In this document: piece after piece, positions 6,600 through 61,084 of the stretch
Layout: each line of letters begins with the position of its first letter
Numbering within the stretch: position 1 is the first letter of the stretch
Assembly (NCBI RefSeq): GCF_006345805.1
Contig: NC_042999.1
Location: 171,492,001 to 171,556,000 of the forward strand
Source of the DNA: Octopus sinensis
Taxonomy: Eukaryota
Reading direction: 5' to 3'
DNA length: 64,000 bases
Translations under genes and position numbers: made by a program
Notes under the pieces: generated by a model
Told to the model about the DNA's origin: nothing
What the model saw: the letters and a program-made list of their open reading frames with translations, nothing else
Databases searched by the model: none

Positions 6600-8437
6600 A
6601 TTAAAACGCTGCTATTAATTTCCTACATTGAGAAAACTCAAACTTATTCTTCAAGCGCAGACCACCTATCATAACGAACTGAATAAATTAAAGAATAGAA
6701 GAAACGCCAAAAAACTGAGAAGGCAGGGCAGCATGAAGAAAACAAACAATGAACAAGGGAAAAGGAAAAACAGTAAGTAAAAAGTAAAAGAAAAAAGAAA
6801 GTAAAAAGGTAAAGAACTCTCTTTAAAAGACAAGGCTGGAAAATTATCAACTGAGTCAGGAATAGCCAGAATTTTCTAATTCTTCAAAATATAATTTATA
6901 TATATGCTTGCTACCACTGAATATTTCTGACCTGGAGTTCTTTAGGGAGTTAGGAATCTTAAATCTGAACAGCATCTACGCTCTTTCAGTCAAACAAAGT
7001 CTATATTTATTCGATCCATTCAAATAAGGTATGTATTTACCAATTACTTTCCATTCAATCCCACGCGGTATTTTGTTATATTTCGCAGTCCATACGTAGC
7101 TAGCCAACGTAGTAGCTTTTCTTATGTCCTTATGTCTGAAGGAGGCTACGTGATTGTTATAGCGATTTTTAAATTCATCTTCACATAATCCAATGTAGAT
7201 CTTATCAGTTGCATTATTATTTAGGATTGCAGTACCTTCTGTCTCATTTATGATAGGTTTAGTCATACGTCGTTGGTCTCGCAACAGTTGCTACTAGATT
7301 CAGGCTCTTGGTATTGACCACCTGTAATGATACTCTTCATATTTAGGCAGCAGCTATACGATAATTTCCCAGAACGCCTATTAAATATTTTCCTATATTT
7401 GTGAGTGTCTTCAACTTCTTTGTCTCGAAGAGACAGGAATCTTTTACCAATGTTAATTTTTATATTGAGTGAAATGTGATCGCGAACCAAATAATTTTCC
7501 TTGGCCTATTTTAAAATTGCTTATTATCCTGATTAGTACAAGAGTGGTTATGTACTACTTTATCTTTGATGCCACTAGATCTATTATTGATATTTTGATT
7601 ATTATTAACGGGAATATATATATAATTAACTTTGAAGCCACTATTGGCATGGGCTTTGTTATAATAGGGGCAGCTTTCACGAAAATTTCTTTGGAAGAAG
7701 AGAGGTTAGACACTCTGTTACTAATATTAGCTACCGGATTTTTAAATATTACAGGAAGGTGACAAGACTATTGATGTATATATAAAAGTGTCCCTTATGC
7801 AAAGAATTATGCAAAGGTTTATCCGAGAAGGAGTCGAATTCTAGGGAAACGCATAAATAATCAACTATAGAGACATTAGTAGCTACTGTAATTTTAAGTC
7901 CTAATTGATTAAACGTAGAAATTAGTTGCTTCCTATGTGTGTCAAGAAAATATCCAAACCGTCGCCAGGGTATAGGCCAATGTCATGAGATGGGTATCTA
8001 TATTACAATGTGTTTATTATAAACAATCCCACAAGATCACAGACGTCAGCACTATCATATGACACTATAGATACATCAAATATTTCATCACTGTGTGACT
8101 TTGTTTTACCTATGCAAATCCATTATTGAACAATAGTGTTTTCGTCGCATGCCTGATAAAATCTAGGTCTATAGGGTCAAAATCAGCATATGATTTAACT
8201 AAGTAAATAGCTTTATTAAGCAGTGATCTAGATATAGAGGGATAAATGTCTATAATATCAAACTGGGTAACTTTACACTTATTCTTATGTTTGATGTTAT
8301 TAAATCAATCTGTTACAGTAAAACTGTTACTCTATTGTTGAAACCCAGCAATTTCCCCAACACTATGATTAATATTTGTAAGTATTGTTTTAGCTTCTAG
8401 CCCAATTTCAGGTCACGCTGAGTTTAACAATCTACAA
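6600..8437 (-). mobile_element. Penelope-like retroelement (RT + C-terminal GIY-YIG), 5'-truncated, degenerate
   Basis: RT: KCKVTQFDIIDIYP, FDVSIVSYDSADVCDLVGLFI, IGLYPGDG (GLYRDDG-like). Thumb: NIGKRFLSL..KIFNRRSGKLSYSC. EN: IYIGLCEDEFKNRYNNH..TTLASYVW..RLCLTE. Confidence 0.92.
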
Positions 8438-8439
8438 GA

Positions 8440-9000
8440 TTGGTAAAAGATTCCTGTCACTCCTAGACAAACATTTCTAGCAACTTACAGATACAGGAAA
8501 ATATTCAATCGGCGTTCTGCCCCAATATGAAGAGTATCATTACACGCGGTCCATAGCAAGAGCTTGAATCCAGTTGCAACTGTCGTGACACAGGATCTTG
8601 TCAACTTGACCAATGATGTATTACTAAATCAAACATATATGAGGCAGACGTTTGTGCAACACTAAATAATAATACAATTGATAAGATTTATATTGCCTTA
8701 TGTGAAAGCGAATTTAAAAATCTCTATGCTAATCCCATAGCCTCCTTCAGACATAGGGACAAAAGTGATGCTACTAAGTTGGTTAACTACGTATGGACCT
8801 TGAAAGATAAGGAAACACCGGATGTTATTAATGGGAAAGTAATGGAGAAATCCATACCTTATGCGAATGGATCGAATAAATGTAGAATTTGTTTGGCTGA
8901 AAGAGCGCAGGTCCTGCAGAGATCTAAGATCCTTAATTTTCTATTGAAATCTGCTAAAAAAATAACGCAACTTCGAGAAGCAGTCTGGCTTCCACTAGAG
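8440..9000 (+). mobile_element. Inverted partial copy of the same Penelope-like 3' region (thumb to GIY-YIG)
   Basis: ATTGGTAAAAGATTCCTGTC at 8440 is the reverse complement of about 7431-7452; ORF 8779-9084 NYVWTLK..PYANGSNKCRICLAERA parallels 6976-7284. Confidence 0.88.
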
Positions 9001-9335
9001 AAAGTGATATTTCATAATTATAAGAAGATAGTACATTGTTATTTTTGTTTTACTCCCAAAGTTCACCTAACATTAGCTTGGTGAATTCAACTTTCCCAGA
9101 AAATGACAAGGATAAGAAGCAGTTCTTAGGATGTACTTTATAACTACTTCAGCAACATGTCGATTGTCGCATAAATGTTCACTGGTTATCTGTAATAAGA
9201 GCTAATTTCTCTCAGTCATGCATCAGCAGTTTAATAGTCCACTGTTCCGGTCACCGTGACATTGAATGCATCGAGCAGAACATTTCAATATTGTAAGTAG
9301 TTTTAACTGGAACAAAACTGCTGACGGCTTTCAAA

Positions 9336-17992: not shown

Positions 17993-18226
17993 CAATAATA
18001 GAAATATTAAAATTACTAAGTCTCTCTAAAAGAGAACAACGGCAGCGTTCCCGGAAAATAATAGTTATCGCCATACTAATATGGCATTCTTATAAAAATA
18101 AGATAAAGCTGTCCGCTTATTAGCTCCATGAGGCAACGCCTTAAGTTAGCTATTTGATACATAAACTGTATCCATATAACCTTCGAACAAGGGAGGGGGT
18201 CAGTCGCTCCACACTACTTGACCGGC

Positions 18227-18277
18227 AGCTACAGACGCGTTTCGGGGTATTGCCCCTTTTCAATGAAGATCGTAACC
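18227..18277 (-). ncRNA. Type I hammerhead ribozyme, U3-A8 core variant
   Basis: Minus strand GGTTACgatcttCA-TTGAAAA-GGGGcaataCCCC-GAAA-CGCG-TC^TGTAGCT; palindromic stem III ACGCGT as in PLE minimal hammerheads. Confidence 0.8.
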
Positions 18278-18800
18278 AGAACCAGTAGGTGTCGCTTCGG
18301 ACAATCTCTGTTCCGAAGGTTTTATTTACCTAGCTTTCGGTGAATACATCCACTTGTTTTCAATAAGAGAAATATTAAATTCCTAAGTCTCTCTAAAAGA
18401 GAACAACGCAGCGTCCCGGAAAATAATAGTTATCGCCATACAATTGGCATTCTTATAAAAATAAGAATAAAGCTGTCCGCTATTAGCTCCATGAGGCCTC
18501 GCCTTAAGTTAGCTATTTGAACACAAACTGTATCCATATAACCTTCGAACGAGGGAGGTCAGTCGCTCCACACTACTTGACCGCAGCTAATAAGCGGAAC
18601 TTTATTCTTATTTTTATAAGAATGCCATATTAGTATGGCGATAACTATTATTTTCGGGAACGCTCCGTTGTTCTCTTTTAGATATGTAGACTTAGTAATT
18701 TTAATATTTCTATTATGAAAACAAGTGGATGTATCCACCGAAGCTATATATAAATTAAAACCTTCGAACAGAGATTGTCAGAAGCGACACCTACTGGTCT

Positions 18801-18847
18801 GGCTACGCTGCATTGAAAGGGGCAATACCCGAAACGCGTCTGTAGCT
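18801..18847 (+). ncRNA. Second hammerhead copy (inverted monomer)
   Basis: GGCTACgctgCA-TTGAAAGGGGcaataCCC-GAAACGCGTC^TGTAGCT; one A and one C shorter than the first copy (mutation or homopolymer error). Confidence 0.65.
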
Positions 18848-18955
18848 GCCGGTCAAGTAGGTGGAGCGACTGACCTCCCTGTTCGAAGGTTATATGGATT
18901 ACAGTTTGTGTATCAATAGCTAACTTAAGGCGATGGCCTCATGGAGCTAATAGCG

Positions 18956-20589: not shown

Positions 20590-22600
20590 GTTTCTGCCTG
20601 TCTCTGTCTCTCTTGTTTACTTTCGTGGGTTCGAGGTCGTTGTGAATTCTTGGCAAAGAAGAAGAAGAAGGAGAAGGAGGAGGAGGAGGAAAAGAAGAAG
20701 ACGAATGCGGGAGTGCCCTGATAGTAGTAGAATGCTAAATGGCCAAGTGCCCTAAAAGTGACTTGTGGATTATAGTAGTCATTGAATTCTTGTGACAGCT
20801 CTTTTGAATGTATTGTTTTTTAATATTTGCGCAAGTGTTTTTCTAAGCAGCAATAGTAGTAAAGTAAGGAAGGAAGTGGTGGAAAGAAAGAGGGACGAAG
20901 AAGAAGAGAAAGAGAAAAGATAATATAATAAGGGTATGCAGGTGGATGATAGTTGTAGGATGTTAAATGGTCAGGTGACCTATAAGCAATTTTCTTGTGG
21001 ATTATAGCAGTGATTGAGGCTGTTTTTTAATGAATTATTGGGTATCTCTTGAATGTATCATTTGTAATATTTGCGCGTGTGTTTGTGTTATTCTAAGGCC
21101 GTGGTGGATATGCCGTTTGTTGTAGATGTGTTCAAAAGGATTCTGTATTTTGTAATAAAGAGAGTCTCTTTATTAATTCGTTGGCTACAGGTTGTATCGT
21201 CCCTGAATTAGTAGAGGGGGAAAATTCTAAAGCTTTTTGTTATTGGTACAAATGTCGATGTGTTGGTAAATGCTATTTTTCTGTCTTGGGAATTTTGATC
21301 TGGGATCTGGGCAGAGCCATCCTTTGACGTAAACTGTTTTTTTGTTTGGCCCATATATTGCTCTTGACTTCCAGAGTGGATTAGTGGGTATATCAGGTTC
21401 TCCGAATTGTATGTGAAACTTCTTTTCACTGTTTGAAGGAGAACTCTGATCCCTCAATTATATTCACGCATATCCCGCAGTTGAGTCTTCCACATTTTTA
21501 CTGACGGCTTCTGTGTTGCTGATGAGCGTATTCGGGCGTGTTAGGAGACTTTTCATAGATTTGGGTTGTTTCTTGCTTTTTATGATGGTGTGTGTTTGGA
21601 GGATTAAGTTCATACTGTGGTCCTTTCTTAACAGGGGAATGTTTTGAAGGATGGTGTCGAAGGCTAAGAATGCTGTGTGTGGATATGTATAGAAGGGCTT
21701 TTGGTTGTAAATCCTGCTTTGTAATAACCTCAAATTGAGACCTATAACAGGTCCCGCATGCGAAACCCACCACCTCTTAAAACCATTCCTCAAGCATGTC
21801 AAAAGCGACATAAGGGACGAACTGGATATGCTCAATCACCTTCCTGAAACAATAAAGAAAATCACTCTAGTAAAATCCTTCGATGCAGTCCACCTCTATT
21901 CCAATATTCCCCACAACCTAAGAATAGAGGCAATTCAATTCTGGCTGGAGAATTACACCAACGAACTCCCACATTACATCAAAAAGGAATTGGTGATAGA
22001 AGGGCTAAAATTCATCTTGGAGAATAACTACTTCGTCTTCAAAGACCCCTTTTGAACGCAGCTACAACAAACGACATATCTACCACGGCCTTTGAACAAC
22101 AGAAACACACACGCAAATATTTAAAATGATACATTCAAGAGATACCCAATAATTCCTTTAAAACTTTTTAGGTCACCTGACCATTTAACATCCTACTACT
22201 ATCATACCACCTGCATTCCCTTATTATATTATCTCTTCCCCTTCTTCTTCGTCTTATTTCTCTCCACCACCTTCCTCACTTTACTAGTATTATAAACAAT
22301 ACATTCAAAAGAGATCTCTCAAGAATTCAATGACTACTAACATTCACAACAAGTCACTTTCAGGGCACTCGACCATTTAACATCCTACTACTATCATGGC
22401 ACTCCCGCATTCTTCTTCTTTTTCTTTTCCTCTTCTTCTTCTTCTTCTTCTTCTTCTTCTTTTTCTTCTTCTTCTTCTTCTTCTTCTTCTTCTTCTTCTT
22501 CTTCTTCTGCTTCTTCTTTTTTCTTCTTTTTCTTCCTCCTCTCCTTCTTCTCTGCCAAGAATTCGCAACGACCTCGAACCCACAAGAGTAAACAGACAGG
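20590..22600. mobile_element. Rearranged Penelope/Poseidon-like element with ~550-bp inverted terminal copies
   Basis: 20590-21135 and 22055-22600 are inverted repeats. The minus strand 21135-21735 has a GIY-YIG remnant (NSENLIY..QYMGQT); plus 21735-22055 is PLE RT (LRPITGP..KSFDAVHLYSNIPH..LKFILENNYFVF). Confidence 0.85.
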
Positions 22601-28807: not shown

Positions 28808-28986
<179 letters not shown>

Positions 28987-29041
28987 ATGTATGTATATAT
29001 ATATATATACTTTATTTTAAGCAGCAGAAAATTCAACAAAT

Positions 29042-29079
29042 CTGTTACTCTGAGTTTCTCGTTGCCGTTCATCAGACAG
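29042..29079 (-). ncRNA. Mirror-image minimal hammerhead
   Basis: Exact reverse complement of 29104-29141. Confidence 0.7.
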
Positions 29080-29103
29080 TTTTTACTAGAATTCTAGCAA
29101 AAA

Positions 29104-29141
29104 CTGTCTGATGAACGGCAACGAGAAACTCAGAGTAACAG
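29104..29141 (+). ncRNA. Minimal type I hammerhead ribozyme
   Basis: CTGT-CTGATGA-aCGgcaaCGa-GAAA-CTCaGAG-TA^ACAG. Stem I CTGT/ACAG, GCAA tetraloop on stem II, near-palindromic stem III. Caveat: A.A mismatch at the base of stem II. Confidence 0.7.
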
Positions 29142-29251
29142 ATTTTGTTGAATTTTCTGCTGCTTAAAATAAAGCATATTACTCTACCACTGGTATTTGA
29201 GTACTCTTTTTTCCACCTTGTTTCACATTTATGTGTTTACTCCGGTCTATA

Positions 29252-29322
<71 letters not shown>

Positions 29323-31490: not shown

Positions 31491-32221
31491 GTATATATGT
31501 ATGTATATCTGGGGCGGTGGAAATCTATCAAATATACCTAAAAGCAAGATTGATGTTTATTCTGTACATATGTATGCTGGTCTTTTGAATAAAATTCTTA
31601 CTTATATGAATTGCATCATAATTTCCTACAGTATCTGGTCATGAGCATTTCTGTGTTTTCGCTATAAAATTCCCCGAGAGAATAAAATGTTTTCTTCCAA
31701 ACCAACTTGCTGACTTGGCTTTATTTGGATGTTTTAGCAAAACAGTCTCTAGTTTGCTGAATATAGATAAATCAACGAAACTACCTTAGCAATCGTTGAG
31801 TAGAAGGTTAGAGCAGATAATTCAAATCGTTTGCCCAGTGCTTTCATAATGTCACTAATCCGCTCCTTCTCTATTTGATTGATACCGGAAGGATGAAACC
31901 CAAATTTTCTTGATAATCGGATGTAAGCACTATCTAATATTTTACTTGTAGTTAATGTGTGAGTGCCTGTACGCCGTATCCGTGTAAATTATTAAATTAA
32001 CCACTGAGAATTTCCTAAAACATTGTTTACTGATCAACTGCTGTGTTTTATGATATGTATGACCCAAGATATTTATAATCAGAAACCATATTTAAAGGCG
32101 CACTGTTGAGAGTGTGGATGATGCAATCACTGTTGGACAGGCACTTGTTTATGTATTCAGTTTTGGCCTCATTGAGGTAAAGACCTACACAATTTGAGGC
32201 TTGTTCAAGAGATTGGAAAAT

Positions 32222-32751
32222 ACTTTCTAACTAGAAAGGGTATGGCCTGGTCAACCTGTAATGACATGCATAAGATCTGGTCATCAAATCTAAGTAGAGA
32301 CTTCAAACTTGAAATATTCAAAGCCACAGTCGAACCAATTCTACTACATGGCTCAGAAACCTGGAGCTTATCAAAGAAGCTTGAGAGGCGGTTGGATGGA
32401 ACCTACACTCGCCTCCTTATGAGAGCTCAAAATCTCTCGTGGAAGCGCCATCCAACCAAAATGCAAATTTATGGGAAATTACCACCTGTGTCATCTCTTG
32501 TGAAAGGTAGGAGAGTCCAGTTTGCTGGACATTGTTGTAGAGCTGAAAAAGAAGTAATTTCTACTCTTCTCCACTGGAAGCCATCTACTCGCAATACCAG
32601 AGGGCGCACACTCTCCTACCCTGATATAATCTCCAGGGATACAGGCATCCAGCAACAGGACCTCCGTAATGCTATGATGGACCGTGAAGTCTGGCGTAAC
32701 ATAGTAAATTCCATTGTCGCGACCACGGTCGAACAATGATGATGATGATGC
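32222..32751 (+). mobile_element. RTE-clade LINE 3' end
   Basis: Open frame FKATVEPILLHGSETW..RLDGTYTRLL..RRVQFAGHCCR..MMDREVWR; stop directly followed by a (GAT)n tail. Confidence 0.92.
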
Positions 32752-36813: not shown

Positions 36814-37033
36814 TATATAATTAAGGGCTCAGTAAAATAATTTACTTTGCCACATACTGACATTTTTATAAATAGCAGCCAAATTTCAGTATGTGGCAAA
36901 GTAAATTATTTTATTGAGCCCTTAATTATATAAAGTAATATTTTGAATACGCCTTGAATGGTCCTTTTACATACTGAACACTACTTGGTGAAATTAATTA
37001 ATAACTAATTGATTTTACCCTTAATTATTGATA

Positions 37034-37096: not shown

Positions 37097-37735
37097 AAAC
37101 TTAGATAAACTTAGATATGTTTCGACCAAAGATTGGTCCAGGCCATGTCTAACTTAATAGCACCACCTGATAGGATTATTCGAATCCTGTTTAAGTCAAG
37201 TTTTGTTCAAGTTGTGAGTTCTTGTTGGGTGAGTTGTATCCAGTTTTGTTCAAGTAGTGAGTTCTTGTTGGGTGAGTTGTATCCAATTATGGGTGGCTTA
37301 TCTGGTATTCTTTGAAGGAATCTATCCAGACTCTGTTTAAAGTTGATGGGATCCTTTTCCTCTTTGATCTCCCTCGGGACAATGTTAAATAGGGTAGGAC
37401 CTGTTGAGGAAAAGAAATTATGTTGCAGTGTACATGTATGTTGAGATCTTGAATTGGGCAGGGGACGTATAGCCCGTGGTCCATGTCTTGGATGAACCTT
37501 GAAGCTAATGTTTAGGTCGTTTGGGCAAAGTTGGCGGTATATTTTCAAAATCGTACAAATGATGTACCGCTCACGGCGACGCTGGAGGGAGTAAAGTTTC
37601 AAGGCTTTAAGGCGGTCCCAATAATCGAGAACAGCCATGCCTTCAATTTGTTTAGTGAGAGCCCTCTGGGGTGACTCAATTCTGGAGATGTTTTGTCTTG
37701 TGTGAGGAGACCACAGTGGGCAGCAGTATTCAAGG
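37097..37735 (-). mobile_element. CR1/L2-group LINE 3' end
   Basis: LEYCCPLWSPH..IESPQRALTK..LDYWDRLKALKLYSLQRRRER..FKQSLDRFL; tail of (ATCTAAGTTT) repeats. Confidence 0.9.
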
Positions 37736-38488
37736 TATATAAACTCTGTCAATATTTCTTTCGTATTTCAAGCTGTAAATATTTGTTCAAACGAGGTGCA
37801 TATATCGCATCATATTCTAGTGTCTGTTGCCATCATCGTGGCAGAAGCTGAATTCTACGCTTAAAATATTTGGTTGGCTTAAACCAAAAAAAAAAAAAAT
37901 TACCTGTACCTCATCAACATTATTGACCCTCCGTCCATGTAGGAAATGAGCTGTGACAAGGAAAAGGTGGTAATCTGATGATGGTCGTCTGGACTTTAGG
38001 CAGTCTAAGTCAGTACGTCTTTGACCCAAAGGTTACTCGAGTTTACCCTTGGTCAATATGGCTGTATGTACGAGGGCATTGACATGCAGTAAGCGTGTTG
38101 TTTTATTATTACCCACTAGGGGCTACATAGATGGGACAATACAATCGGGAAAATGAATAATGAATTATGAAGTTTGTACAATGTGGTGCAATGGAAGTAA
38201 TAATAGAGAAAGAAAGAGGGAGTTGAAAGAAATTCCTGTTCCCAACATCCTGACCAGCATACTGAAAACTATTCTTTTTTAATTATATTTTGCTTAGCAC
38301 CTTAAGGGGAAAAATGCTTTTAGTGATGACTGTACCCCACCCTGTTTTCATTATTTCCTCATCCTAAAAGAGGTCACCACCGTTGAACTCATATCTCATG
38401 CCAATAGCTATACAATGGTAAAAAACTAAATAAGTGAATAAATGGTAAAACCCTTTCCCTCCCTCTCTCTAACTATCTATCTATCTGC

Positions 38489-52400: not shown

Positions 52401-53139
52401 GTGAAGAATCGCAAATTCAAGCCTGTGAAATAATGTTATTTTGAATTCTTTAAATAAAATCGAAGATATCAGTGATAAGAATCGTTCAGTTTAAGTGCAG
52501 TTGCCTTTATTCGTTTGCTGTCTTTGAAATTATTCAGGATACAGCTTCAAATGTATATAAGATTAAAGAAAAACACGTTGCTGCCTATAGAACTTCTTAT
52601 GTATTCATTTTAAGAAAACCCAAGAATAATTATATAAGTAAGATAGAACATATTGTAAGTTGAATCGATCACTGCTGATTACAAATAATTAATTTTCCAG
52701 TTACGGAACTTGTGTATAGCAGCTCTTGTACAGTGCGGAAGACTTGTTCGATTGTTTGACATTCGTATTATCTTTATGGAAATGCATTTCTAATAGAATG
52801 CACAGCAATCCGACCTAGTCGATAATGAATACGTATCTCAAAGTTGTTATAAATTAGTGATGAAACAAATTGGGTAAATGTTAAATTTGAAGACAGGTGT
52901 CATAGATATATATATATATATATATATTTGTTGAAATGGATAAATGAATTATCTTGTTACGGATTATTCAAAATTTAACCGATACCTGGGTAGCAAAAAT
53001 CACAACAGAAAAAACACGGTTGAGGTTACGACCATGGGGTGTCGCAACCGTGCCTTAGCGCGGATAATTGAAGTTTTATATATTTAGTGAAGAGAAGAAA
53101 TGGAGCTGAACGAAGATTCTACAAACTTCCTTTTTATTA

Positions 53140-53223
53140 TTTTCTACACATGTTTCAAAGGCTGCAAATTTCCAAATTCGGATTGAATAAGGAGACCATT
53201 TTGCAGCTTTCTCTTCAGGAAAA
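53140..53223 (-). ncRNA. Type I hammerhead ribozyme with long stem II
   Basis: TTTTC-CTGAAGA-GAAAGCTGCAAA..TTTGCAGCCTTT-GAAA-CATGTG-TA^GAAAA. Confidence 0.85.
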
Positions 53224-53831
53224 ACCAGGAATATAAATCTCCAAAGCAAATGCGCAGCAAGCTATTCGAACAAAACGCTCCCTAGGAGCCCATGGTAAGG
53301 CACAAAACTGTCTCTCAATGTGCGTTGACGTCAGGGTGTGTGAAGGCCGACGAAAAAGTCCGTTGGAACAAATCGAGGTCAAACTGCGGTTAAATTTGGT
53401 AGGGGAAGAATTCAAGAAAACCAAAGAGTGTGAATACATTCTGTATAACTAATGTTAATGTTCGAATTGTTTTAAGAATGAAAGCTATCTTATTTGGGTG
53501 TGAGAAACTACTTACATGTATGTGTGTGTGCGCCTGTGTATGTGTGGCAGTATGTTAGGAAGCAGTTAGTGGGAAAATATATTGCAGATATTGTAGGTCA
53601 AGCGGCTGATAAAAGCCTGTGTCTGTGTGTTCGTCTGTGGTCAGTTTATACACCGATGACTTGTTAAACAAGGGGAGTATAATCCCTGATATTGTTTCTA
53701 AATAAGTAGCAGATCATACGCTAAAAGGGGAGTAATTTCCCTTTACAAATTTAATTCAAAATTTTTTTTCCAAATTTTTTCCAAAATTTTTTTCCTTTCT
53801 AAGGACATCAAGGTGTTAATTATCTTAGGCT

Positions 53832-54317
53832 TCAATTGTATGCAAGAAATGTGTGCCGCCTCCAATGGGGACATCTGAAAGAGTTTTGCAAAATCGCGTT
53901 AACTAGCCGCCCTCGGGCGAACAAAATGTGAAAAAGTTCAGAGTTGCAGAGATTACAGATTCTTTTGCCTCTATCAAACGGTACAGACACCGATAAAATC
54001 GACCATTCCAGTCTAAATGCTGAATTCGCGTTCTTCAAACGCCAGATCAATTTACTTAGTCCGGTCGCGTGTTGTTTTCTAAAATCTCGAAATGTTGTGA
54101 AGTGGTTCGATATTCTCACGGCCAATTTTGATGATGACGCTCCGATATACAAGTAGACATCTGATTCAGTACAAACTCTGCATTGGTAAATGGCATTTCT
54201 AATCTTGGAAATACTAGATAAGAACCTTATTCTATTGGGATTGGCTTCAGATATTAATACGGCGTTCTTATTACTATGATGATTGCGAGAACTGCGGCTG
54301 TCTTCGACATTATACAC
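53832..54317 (-). CDS. GIY-YIG endonuclease domain of Penelope-like element (left arm)
   Basis: NAIYQC..YLYIGASS..RISNH..TGLSKLIW..ICNLCNSE..CPH. There is no ATG; it is a truncated part of a longer ORF, open further upstream. Confidence 0.85.
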   Translation of the reverse strand: MYNVEDSRSSRNHHSNKNAVLISEANPNRIRFLSSISKIRNAIYQCRVCTESDVYLYIGASSSKLAVRISNHFTTFRDFRKQHATGLSKLIWRLKNANSAFRLEWSILSVSVPFDRGKRICNLCNSELFHILFARGRLVNAILQNSFRCPHWRRHTFLAYN

Positions 54318-54890
54318 CCCATTATCAATACTATTTAATGGAATATCACCTGTATATTCCCTGGCACTGAGATCGCTGTGATTGCTAATGTCCGTGATGC
54401 TACTGTTGTCAAAACCGTTGCTAAAAGTGTTATTGGCACTCTCTACATTAATGACTCGGACAGTGCTCTCTGGGTATTATGCCACTGTTAACTCACACAA
54501 AGTTAGGATAGCCTTCTCCAACACTAAGAATCTCTCACAGATAATTTCCTCCCATAACAATAAGCTGCTAAATAAGGCCCTCTCACCAGAATAACGCGCA
54601 GTAATAATAATAATAATAATAATGATAATAGAACCGGCACAGAGATTAGCAATCTCCATACCAGCCATGGAGTTAATAATAGGAATAAGGATAGGAGCAA
54701 TGGTGACGACACTAGCGTTAGTAATGGTAATGGGGATGAGAGCACTGTCCGAGTCATTAATGTAGAGAGTCCCAATAACACTTTTAGCAACGGTTTTGAC
54801 AACAGTAGCATCACGGACATTAGCAATCACAGCGATCTCAGTGCCAGGGAATATACAGGTGATATTCCATTAAATAGTATTGATAATGGG

Positions 54891-55376
54891 GTGTATAATG
54901 TCGAAGACAGCCGCAGTTCTCGCAATAATCATAGTAATAAGAACGCCGTATTAATATCTGAAGCCAATCCCAATAGAATAAGGTTCTTATCTAGTAATTC
55001 CAAGATTAGAAATGCCATTTACCAATGCAGAGTTTGTACTGAATCAGATGTCTACTTGTATATCGGAGCGTCATCATCAAAATTGGCCGTGAGAATATCG
55101 AACCACTTCACAACATTTCGCGATTTTAGAAAACAACACGTAACCGGACTAAGTAAATTGATCTGGCGTTTGAAGAACGCGAATTCAGCATTTAGACTGG
55201 AATGGTCGATTTTATCGGTGTCTGTACCGTTTGATAGAGGCAAAAGAATCTGTAGTCTCTGCAACTCTGAACTTTTTCACATTTTGTTCGCCCGAGGGCG
55301 GCTAGTTAACGCGATTTTGCAAAACTCTTTCAGATGTCCCCATTGGAGGCGGCACACATTTCTTGCATACAATTGA
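54891..55376 (+). CDS. GIY-YIG endonuclease domain of Penelope-like element (right arm)
   Basis: Same protein with 4 aa differences in 161. The frame is open from ~54576 through an Asn/Ser-rich linker; GTG is not a real start. Confidence 0.85.
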   Translation: MYNVEDSRSSRNNHSNKNAVLISEANPNRIRFLSSNSKIRNAIYQCRVCTESDVYLYIGASSSKLAVRISNHFTTFRDFRKQHVTGLSKLIWRLKNANSAFRLEWSILSVSVPFDRGKRICSLCNSELFHILFARGRLVNAILQNSFRCPHWRRHTFLAYN

Positions 55377-55980
55377 AGCCTAAGATAATTAACACCTTGA
55401 TGTCCTAAGAAAGGAAAAAAATTTTGGAAAGAATTTGGAAAAAAGATTTTGAATTAAATTTGTAAAGGGAAATTACTCCCCTTTTAGCGTATGATCTGCT
55501 ACTTATTTAGAAACAATATCAGGGATTATACTCCCCTTGTTTAACAAGTCATCGGTGTATAAACTGACCACAGACGAACACACAGACACAGGCTTTTATC
55601 AGCCGCTTGACCTACAATATCTGCAATATATTTTCCCACTAACTGCTTCCTAACATACTGCCACACATACACAGGCGCACACACATATACATGTAAGTAG
55701 TTTCTCACACCCAAATAAGATAGCTTTCATTCTTAAAACAATTCGAACATTAACATTAGTTATACAGAATATATTCACTTTGGTTTTCTTGAATTCTTCC
55801 CCTACCAAATTTAACCGCAGTTTGACCTCGATTTGTTCCAACGGACTTTTTCGTCGGCCTTCACACACCCTGACGTCAACGCACATTGAGAGACAGTTTT
55901 GTGCCTTACCATGGGCTCTTAGGGAGCGTTTTGTTCGAATAGCTTGCTGCGCATATGTTTTGGAGATTTATATTCCTGGT

Positions 55981-56064
55981 TTTTCCTGAAGAGAATGCTG
56001 CAAAATGGTCTCCTTATTCAATCCGAATTTGGAAATTTGCAGCCTTTGAAACATGTGTAGAAAA
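55981..56064 (+). ncRNA. Type I hammerhead ribozyme (right arm)
   Basis: TTTTC-CTGAAGA-GAATGCTGCAAA..TTTGCAGCCTTT-GAAA-CATGTG-TA^GAAAA; predicted cleavage after 56059. Confidence 0.85.
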
Positions 56065-56117
56065 TAATAAAAAGGAAGTTTGTAGAATCTTCGTTCAGCT
56101 CCATTTCTTCCCTTCAC

Positions 56118-56170
<53 letters not shown>

Positions 56171-60345: not shown

Positions 60346-60349
60346 TTAT

Positions 60350-60407
60350 TACCGTATTGGTCCAATTTCGGGGTTAATTCATAAGAATTTTCCCCTCTTC
60401 AGCGATA
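60350..60407 (-). ncRNA. Type I hammerhead ribozyme (inverted copy)
   Basis: Exact reverse complement of 60891-60948. Confidence 0.88.
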
Positions 60408-60890
60408 AATACGTGGGATATAAGTGAAATACTTACTCATACCCATACTTATGAATTAACCCCGAAATTGGACCGATACGGTAATAACGGATTTTTTAGA
60501 AATTTCTATCGGGTTGTGTCGAGACGCATAAATTATAATGGTTATTGACAATTTTTGTCTTTTCAGCATATTTGGCATTAGAATTTTTCTTTTGCCTTTA
60601 TCTTGTAAATTATTTATAAATTTAACCTTTAAAGGTATTTTTTGATATGCTGGCCATTGATAAAATTTTTTTCCCGAAAAAAATTTTATCCTTCATTAGT
60701 TATAAATTGAATAGTGTTCACTTCCGGATTCTTTCACTCTGTGAAAGTTTCTAGTTCGAATCACACGTGCCTCGAGATGTGCCGAAGATTTTCTATTTTG
60801 GATATATTTGGGGTGCTTAGGTCTGCTCTGGACTTAGTGCTTGCTTTTTCCATGGGTATGAGTAAGTATTTCACTTATATCCCACGTATT

Positions 60891-60948
60891 TATCGCTGAA
60901 GAGGGGAAAATTCTTATGAATTAACCCCGAAATTGGACCAATACGGTA
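60891..60948 (+). ncRNA. Type I hammerhead ribozyme, canonical core
   Basis: TATCG-CTGAAGA-GGGGaaAATTCttatGAATTaaCCCC-GAAA-TTGGaCCAA-TA^CGGTA. Confidence 0.9.
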
Positions 60949-61084
60949 ATAACGGATTTTTTAGAAATTTCTATCGGTTTGTTTCGAGACGCATAAATTA
61001 TAATGGTTATTGACAATTTTTGACTTTTTTTCGGCATATTTATTTGGCATTAGAATTTTTATTTTGCCCTTATCTTGTAAATTA

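Follow-up and report, generated by a model that had tools for sequence, protein, structure and literature searches.

In the genome of Octopus sinensis (assembly GCF_006345805.1, contig NC_042999.1, positions 171,492,001 to 171,556,000, a stretch of 64,000 nucleotides that we call the window), a short element lies between two microsatellites. Most of it is a palindrome of 165 nt with zero spacer, centered on the word GAATTC at 29089–29094, where an inverted arm on the minus strand (29010–29091, 82 nt) meets the direct arm on the plus strand that it mirrors (29092–29174, 83 nt). This junction, which has related centers in other copies, was defined by comparing the arms; they differ from each other at only two places, a mismatch (29085 against 29098) and one extra T in the run at 29143–29146. 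To the right, and only to the right, the element continues as a 72-nt tail (29175–29246, plus strand) with a predicted hairpin at 29180–29203. The left end has no counterpart to this extension, so the element is asymmetric and its termini are unequal. Repeat annotation places (TA)n microsatellites on both sides, at 28842–29009 and at 29248–29320; they are the likely insertion target, and a target-site duplication would look the same as the repeat that flanks the element. The near-perfect, spacerless palindrome and the (TA)n on either side of it, both claimed in a preliminary description of this DNA, are thus confirmed (one substitution and one 1-nt indel between the arms). Elsewhere in the window there is no second copy of the palindrome element, and at the locus itself we found no tandem direct array.

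As RNA, 29010–29248 is predicted to fold at -138.5 kcal/mol (z -21.3), and none of 200 shuffled sequences folded equally well. The same description had denied the element any coding capacity, and in substance that stands, as there is no real coding capacity; taken literally it does not, because an ATG in the hammerhead core (29111) opens a frame of 18 codons (29111–29167). Position 29166, which lies inside the stop codon of this frame, differs in 62–67% of the depth of the repeat family described below, and given that variation the frame may be the start of the parent element's ORF.

The hammerhead motifs and their predicted folding

Each arm carries, as had been proposed, one 38-nt hammerhead motif (29104–29141 on the plus strand and a mirror copy on the minus strand), and in both arms the core (CUGANGA, GAAA and UH) is intact, with three stems around it. 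The proposal that the palindrome is made almost entirely of these two hammerheads went too far: together they account for 76 of its 165 nt.

With its outer pairs included, the predicted type I minimal hammerhead of the plus strand spans 29097–29148. Stem I (29097–29107 with 29138–29148) has four base pairs (29104–29107 with 29138–29141) and, beyond a 1x1 loop, six further outer pairs (29097–29102 with 29143–29148). The core CUGAUGA (29108–29114) leads into stem II (29115–29124), which consists of two C-G pairs, a GCAA loop and an A.A at the base; then come GAA (29125–29127) and the palindromic stem III, ACUC-A-GAGU (29128–29136), of 3–4 bp, after which a GUA cleavage triplet follows, with the cut predicted after A29137. 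The mirror motif on the minus strand (29036–29086) has its core starting at 29075 and its predicted cut after 29046, and a substitution, together with the lack of one T, weakens its outer stem I.

How easily might such a motif arise by chance? A strict type I descriptor, which was composed after the motif had been seen, matches the window four times, at this pair and at another one (60402 and 60896); 200 dinucleotide shuffles averaged 0.045 matches and never exceeded one, with a single match in 9 of the 200. At gathering score Rfam gave 0 matches over the window, and no hammerhead family is among the 35 matches returned at E<=10 over 28950–29300. Those weak matches were rejected; they are topped by miRNA-precursor models, which fit any hairpin.

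The G10.1-C11.1 pair that closes stem II, described as highly conserved in the passages cited from PMC4209133, is missing, and A29115.A29124 stands in its place. This A.A may inactivate the ribozyme, as the preliminary description warned, but it need not, because natural hammerheads with stems II of 1–2 bp and with a U-U mismatch at the closing position are reported in the cited part of PMC3088659. A single arm is predicted to misfold, the share of the hammerhead being about 1e-4 (a figure that does not include tertiary terms). In a co-fold of two right arms, the minimum-energy state is a double hammerhead, only 2.2 kcal/mol below two monomers, which supports the earlier suggestion of a minimal hammerhead of the dimer type; in co-folding prediction, neither the left arm nor the bare 38-mer adopts the double-hammerhead fold.

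The repeat family in public sequencing runs

Half or more of the element's words are present in 20 of 24 listed public runs (8 organism labels, 11 studies), and we sampled the family at a likeness of 82% through the contigs of four of these 24, X1, X5, X8 and X11. Matching contigs number 547 in X1, 13,191 in X5, 3,908 in X8 and one in X11, and the repeat family is very abundant in these runs (depth summed over contigs does not measure copy number).

The family has two recurring 3' ends. At the short one, (AT)n begins behind 29179 (79 contigs in X5 and 33 in X8); at the long one, it begins behind 29246 (118 contigs in X5, 105 in X8 and 6 in X1); and the tail between them measures 67–72 nt. At the octopus locus the end of the left arm matches the short family 3' end, and the end of the right-arm tail matches the long one. 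C>T at 29175 is found in 7–14% of family depth. On the other side, before 29091, other copies carry non-palindromic upstream sequence (12 contigs in X8 and one in X1), of which about 30 nt are visible, and because those copies continue upstream of 29091, the arm represents the truncated end of a longer sequence.

Where do other copies invert? Inversion joints that cross the arms fall at no fewer than 13 different sites (13 of the 15 joints listed, from 25), and the family includes near-symmetric joints as well as asymmetric ones. Two complete hammerheads are kept in none of the 13 listed joints and one complete hammerhead in 1 of the 13, and six further arm-crossing joints keep no complete hammerhead. 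X5 supplies all 13, one of which X8 has as well, and each consists of one or two contigs with 21–27 letters on the short side and is flagged as weak; joints very near the center register as gaps, which biases the joint count against center-like copies. A center that is 8 nt shorter does recur, at 29086, with two contigs each in X1 and X5 and one in X8, and diverged center-spanning contigs occur in X5 (records 10 and 11). The center bin holds 0.25%, 0.17% and 0.06% of peak depth in three runs, so that center-like copies are a small minority. A change of 29085 A>G, considered as proof of a shared center, was rejected, because the same signal arises when right-arm contigs align on the left arm.

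Within the ribozyme, a U4C change in the core is common (14%, 75% and 16% of depth), and this is the only invariant core position that varies at 5% or more. Position 29124 has the variants A, G and T, with an A-U closing pair in 2%, 23% and 12% of depth and an A.G in 12%, 37% and 18%. At the level of 5% or more, we found no compensatory change and no change at the Watson-Crick-paired stem positions of the plus motif; the family has only 11 substitution rows over 239 nt. The single contig of X11 (161 nt) is identical over 29091–29246 and stops short of the left arm; the RNA origin of X11 is a guess, so that the contig does not count here as evidence of expression, and no run on record as RNA is among the listed holders of the family.

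The last 80 nt of the element (29167–29246) are common to copies with different upstream sequences, with loose ends before 29167, 29168 and 29171 in X5 and X8, and the hairpin predicted inside this shared segment starts at the short 3' end. Several families may, in other words, share one tail. We take the tail to resemble repeats of octopus genomes, and a 21-nt motif from it has no match in the metagenome, viral and prokaryote genome collections. Going by titles and the opening lines of abstracts, none of the papers listed treats this family, or a hammerhead element that forms a fixed palindrome (Repbase, Dfam and some supplements are outside that scope and may hold the family); three tail motifs have no match in paper texts, and three motifs are absent from one supplementary file of PMC8557442.

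Origin of the palindrome and fate of its ribozyme

What, then, is this element? We consider it highly probable that it is the 5'-truncated end of an abundant repeat, likely the pseudo-LTR (pLTR) of a Penelope-like element (PLE), set head-to-head with an inverted copy of itself in (TA)n, and that any transcript through it would fold to a rod in which the hammerhead stays shut. Four traits of PLE pLTRs recur here: a type I hammerhead with a short palindromic stem III; an inverted, 5'-truncated copy placed head-to-head, with a palindromic junction; an optional tail at one end, with two recurring 3' ends; and insertion into AT-rich or microsatellite DNA. The cited passages of the PLE literature describe much the same arrangement. 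In PMC3846280, PLEs have an inverted pLTR and an optional one-sided tail, and palindromes at the inverted junction are read as self-priming; the general scheme of PMC8557442 has an inverted 5'-truncated copy, a tail and a bias toward microsatellites. PLE pLTRs carry minimal hammerheads, with dual motifs 100–700 bp apart on opposite strands (PMC4209133), and these minimal hammerheads cut weakly and as dimers (PMC4209133; reviewed in PMC6765202). In the purified Anolis element, the tail lies between two reverse transcription start sites, cleavage is at AT-rich DNA, extension takes place on both strands, and the ribozyme depends on the protein (PMC11167929).

By analogy with that work, the origin of the locus can be pictured as follows. 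The GIY-YIG endonuclease of the parent element would have nicked an AT-rich target; reverse transcription would have started at one of two internal sites, the end of the tail or the short end, and would have halted just 5' of hammerhead stem I; and the inverted arm would have been formed by fold-back self-priming at a short self-complementary word. Each arm would then be a 5'-truncated pLTR copy, the inverted one without a tail and ending at the short family 3' end. We lean toward fold-back self-priming, given that the stops of the two arms lie no more than about 2 nt apart, and the alternative, two separately primed cDNAs joined head-to-head, is a close rival and somewhat less probable. In either case, the hammerhead would be cargo from the parent element, in which it would cleave in dimeric form, probably weakly and assisted by protein.

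Pen2a and Pen3a of Adineta vaga (PMC3846280), together with the scheme of PMC8557442, share with the octopus locus the truncated head-to-head copy, the palindromic junction, the extension at one end and the microsatellite target; the octopus locus differs in consisting of two repeat ends only, with no ORF between them. With the minimal hammerheads of metazoan PLEs (PMC4209133) it shares the type I layout, the intact core, a palindromic stem III with a minimal loop, the predicted dimer and the pairing of motifs on opposite strands, whereas the spacing of the hammerheads is about 30 nt here against the 100–700 bp given there. PAc (Poseidon of Anolis carolinensis, PMC11167929) likewise has two 3' ends that define a tail, AT-rich targets and a start codon in the hammerhead region, but the octopus family has a longer tail, and its ATG lies within the core instead of where stem II begins.

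Some evidence counts against the PLE reading. The tail of 67–72 nt compares with 30–40 nt reported for PLEs in the passages cited, stem II has 2 bp and lacks its G10.1-C11.1 pair where the Schistosoma families of PMC4209133 have 7–8 bp, Rfam contributes no hammerhead match, and neither an RT nor a GIY-YIG ORF is linked within the roughly 30 nt of upstream sequence. The departures from the published cases are small (a longer tail, a stem II of 2 bp whose closing pair is non-canonical, and repeats that enclose no ORF), and on the comparisons above the element is very likely a PLE pLTR remnant. The preliminary description had offered the smallest truncation product of such a pLTR as one of two origins. 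The truncation itself is supported by the two 3' ends running into (AT)n, by the upstream continuation and by the inverted arm with its one-sided tail; the superlative has to go, as other copies invert further 3', inside the ribozyme or past it.

The layout is one already described for PLEs, and the locus is one of very many debris copies; taken singly it matters little. The family is of more use, in that its abundance, its two sharply defined 3' ends, separated by about 70 nt, and its many joints offer material with which to separate two models of the inverted pLTR. Fold-back self-priming and two primed cDNAs could be told apart genome-wide by the symmetry of the junctions and by which arm bears the tail. 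A hammerhead that has only 2 bp in stem II and a non-canonical pair closing it would, if it cleaves, also widen the range of hammerheads a little.

Did the parent have to be a PLE itself? The repeat might instead be the end of a non-coding hammerhead retroposon, SINE-like or retrozyme-like, that had no ORF and was mobilized in trans by a PLE, and we judge this unlikely. The idea draws on a family without a linked ORF, on 3' 80 nt that are common to copies with unrelated upstream sequences, and on the derivation of animal retrozymes from PLE pLTRs (10.64898/2026.07.22.740005). Non-LTR retrozymes (see also PMC7229834) resemble our element in their non-coding nature, type I hammerhead and presumed origin from a PLE pLTR, but they consist of units repeated in tandem and in direct orientation, with a type I hammerhead in every unit, whereas the octopus locus is a single inverted pair without a tandem direct array, and the few backward joints in the family have no common unit length. 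Since such a retroposon would be inserted by the same PLE mechanism, it would alter the identity of the parent and not the reading of the locus.

The second origin in the preliminary description was a self-standing, MITE-like element, that is, the palindrome and its tail as a non-autonomous PLE-derived unit that re-amplifies with a fixed center. MITEs are short, non-coding, hairpin-forming elements at TA-rich sites, and as a short non-coding hairpin at a TA-rich site the octopus element is like them; nearly identical centers do, moreover, occur in three runs (the 8-nt-shorter form in X1, X5 and X8 and the diverged form in X5). Unlike MITEs, it has no internal spacer, its ends are unequal instead of matching terminal inverted repeats, its copies are not uniform in size or structure, and its center varies, with most of the family sequence off the palindrome center. 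The recurring centers are not identical to that of the locus, at least 13 other joints exist, the center bin reaches only 0.06–0.25% of peak depth, native upstream sequence exists, and the cited part of PMC3846280 already reports that inversion favors a point at the pLTR 5' end. We therefore set the self-standing element aside as quite improbable. One may also imagine, with as little expectation of being right, that a fold-back subset with a near-fixed center re-amplifies across species, and that its hairpin transcripts would trap the ribozyme and feed double-stranded RNA to small-RNA and A-to-I pathways, thus silencing the parent PLE family.

That the palindrome is a fold-back artefact of assembly or library is very improbable: no aligned contig covers the whole stretch and the exact center is absent among the contigs listed, but there are two differences between the arms, the left arm stops where other members of the family also end, only one side bears a tail, and three independent runs contain similar inversions.

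There remains the ribozyme within the truncated pLTR that we favor, which had been described as having a built-in on/off switch between a rod and a ribozyme fold. The hammerheads lie on opposite strands, so that one transcript consists of one hammerhead plus its antisense, and therefore no dimerization can occur within one transcript. The antisense arm is transcribed first, whichever the direction, and folding prediction has the rod as the minimum already while the 3' end grows through the core. The ensemble energy of the rod is -140.5 kcal/mol, against -59.2 kcal/mol when the hammerhead is constrained, and an advantage of about 81 kcal/mol predicts a permanent lock, not a switch. Only transcripts that start at about 29082 or later are predicted to escape the rod. 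In other words, the model predicts a hairpin that keeps the hammerhead shut rather than switching it; the on/off switch is not supported, and the hammerhead at this locus most likely does nothing. A switch retained by the host for regulation, toggling between rod and active ribozyme, could point to the two intact core motifs of this copy and to the late-starting transcripts that would escape, but it is hardly credible against the size of the energy gap, the antisense arm made first in either direction, the motifs on opposite strands and the fact that most other inversions of the family cut through the ribozyme.

Other repeats in the window

Several further repeats of the window are noted as observations in their own right. 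By Pfam at cut-off, 5 and 10 frames of the window gave no GIY-YIG, RT or host-gene family, and the fragments at 32048–32739 and 37207–37767, which by eye look like C-terminal parts of a LINE reverse transcriptase, have no Pfam match at cut-off. A short imperfect palindrome at 36814–36932 (86% over 116 nt) adjoins a TA tract and has no hammerhead motif. At 18010–18955, a (TA)-rich tract adjoins a direct and an inverted repeat unit whose copies differ by many small indels; by eye, this repeat seems to contain a degenerate hammerhead with a palindromic stem III. An old inverted pair at 6950–7454 and 8436–8936 (74% identity) overlaps a frame at 8617–9084 that by eye resembles the end of a GIY-YIG endonuclease and has no relevant Pfam match.

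Three larger arrangements are head-to-head. At 20706–22409, a diverged inverted repeat (74% identity) surrounds an RT-like fragment at 21801–22052, which we note as a lead only. At 53077–56127 lies an inverted element of about 3 kb, with arms 98–99% identical and a right end that meets (TA)n; each arm has a GIY-YIG-like ORF (54576–55376 on the plus strand and 53832–54476 on the minus strand), and in a comparison with GIY-YIG clusters the ORF scored 0.95, with PF01541 in 33% of members, which is again a lead only, as Pfam itself gave no match for it. The descriptor found no hammerhead in this element, and among 396 candidates there were no longer homologues of 54900–55373.

At 60346–61084 is a second family of minimal type I hammerheads, with cores at 60896 on the plus strand and 60402 on the minus strand. 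Here an inverted short arm is followed by a truncated direct copy and then by a direct arm that reaches a microsatellite, and the inverted arm, of 101 nt, is 100% identical to 60852–60952. In these hammerheads stem II is long and closed by the canonical G-C pair, loop III measures 1 nt, and the dimer is predicted to take the double-hammerhead fold. As the same inverted layouts are found at 60346–61084, 53077–56127 and 20706–22409, head-to-head retroelement debris is common in the window.
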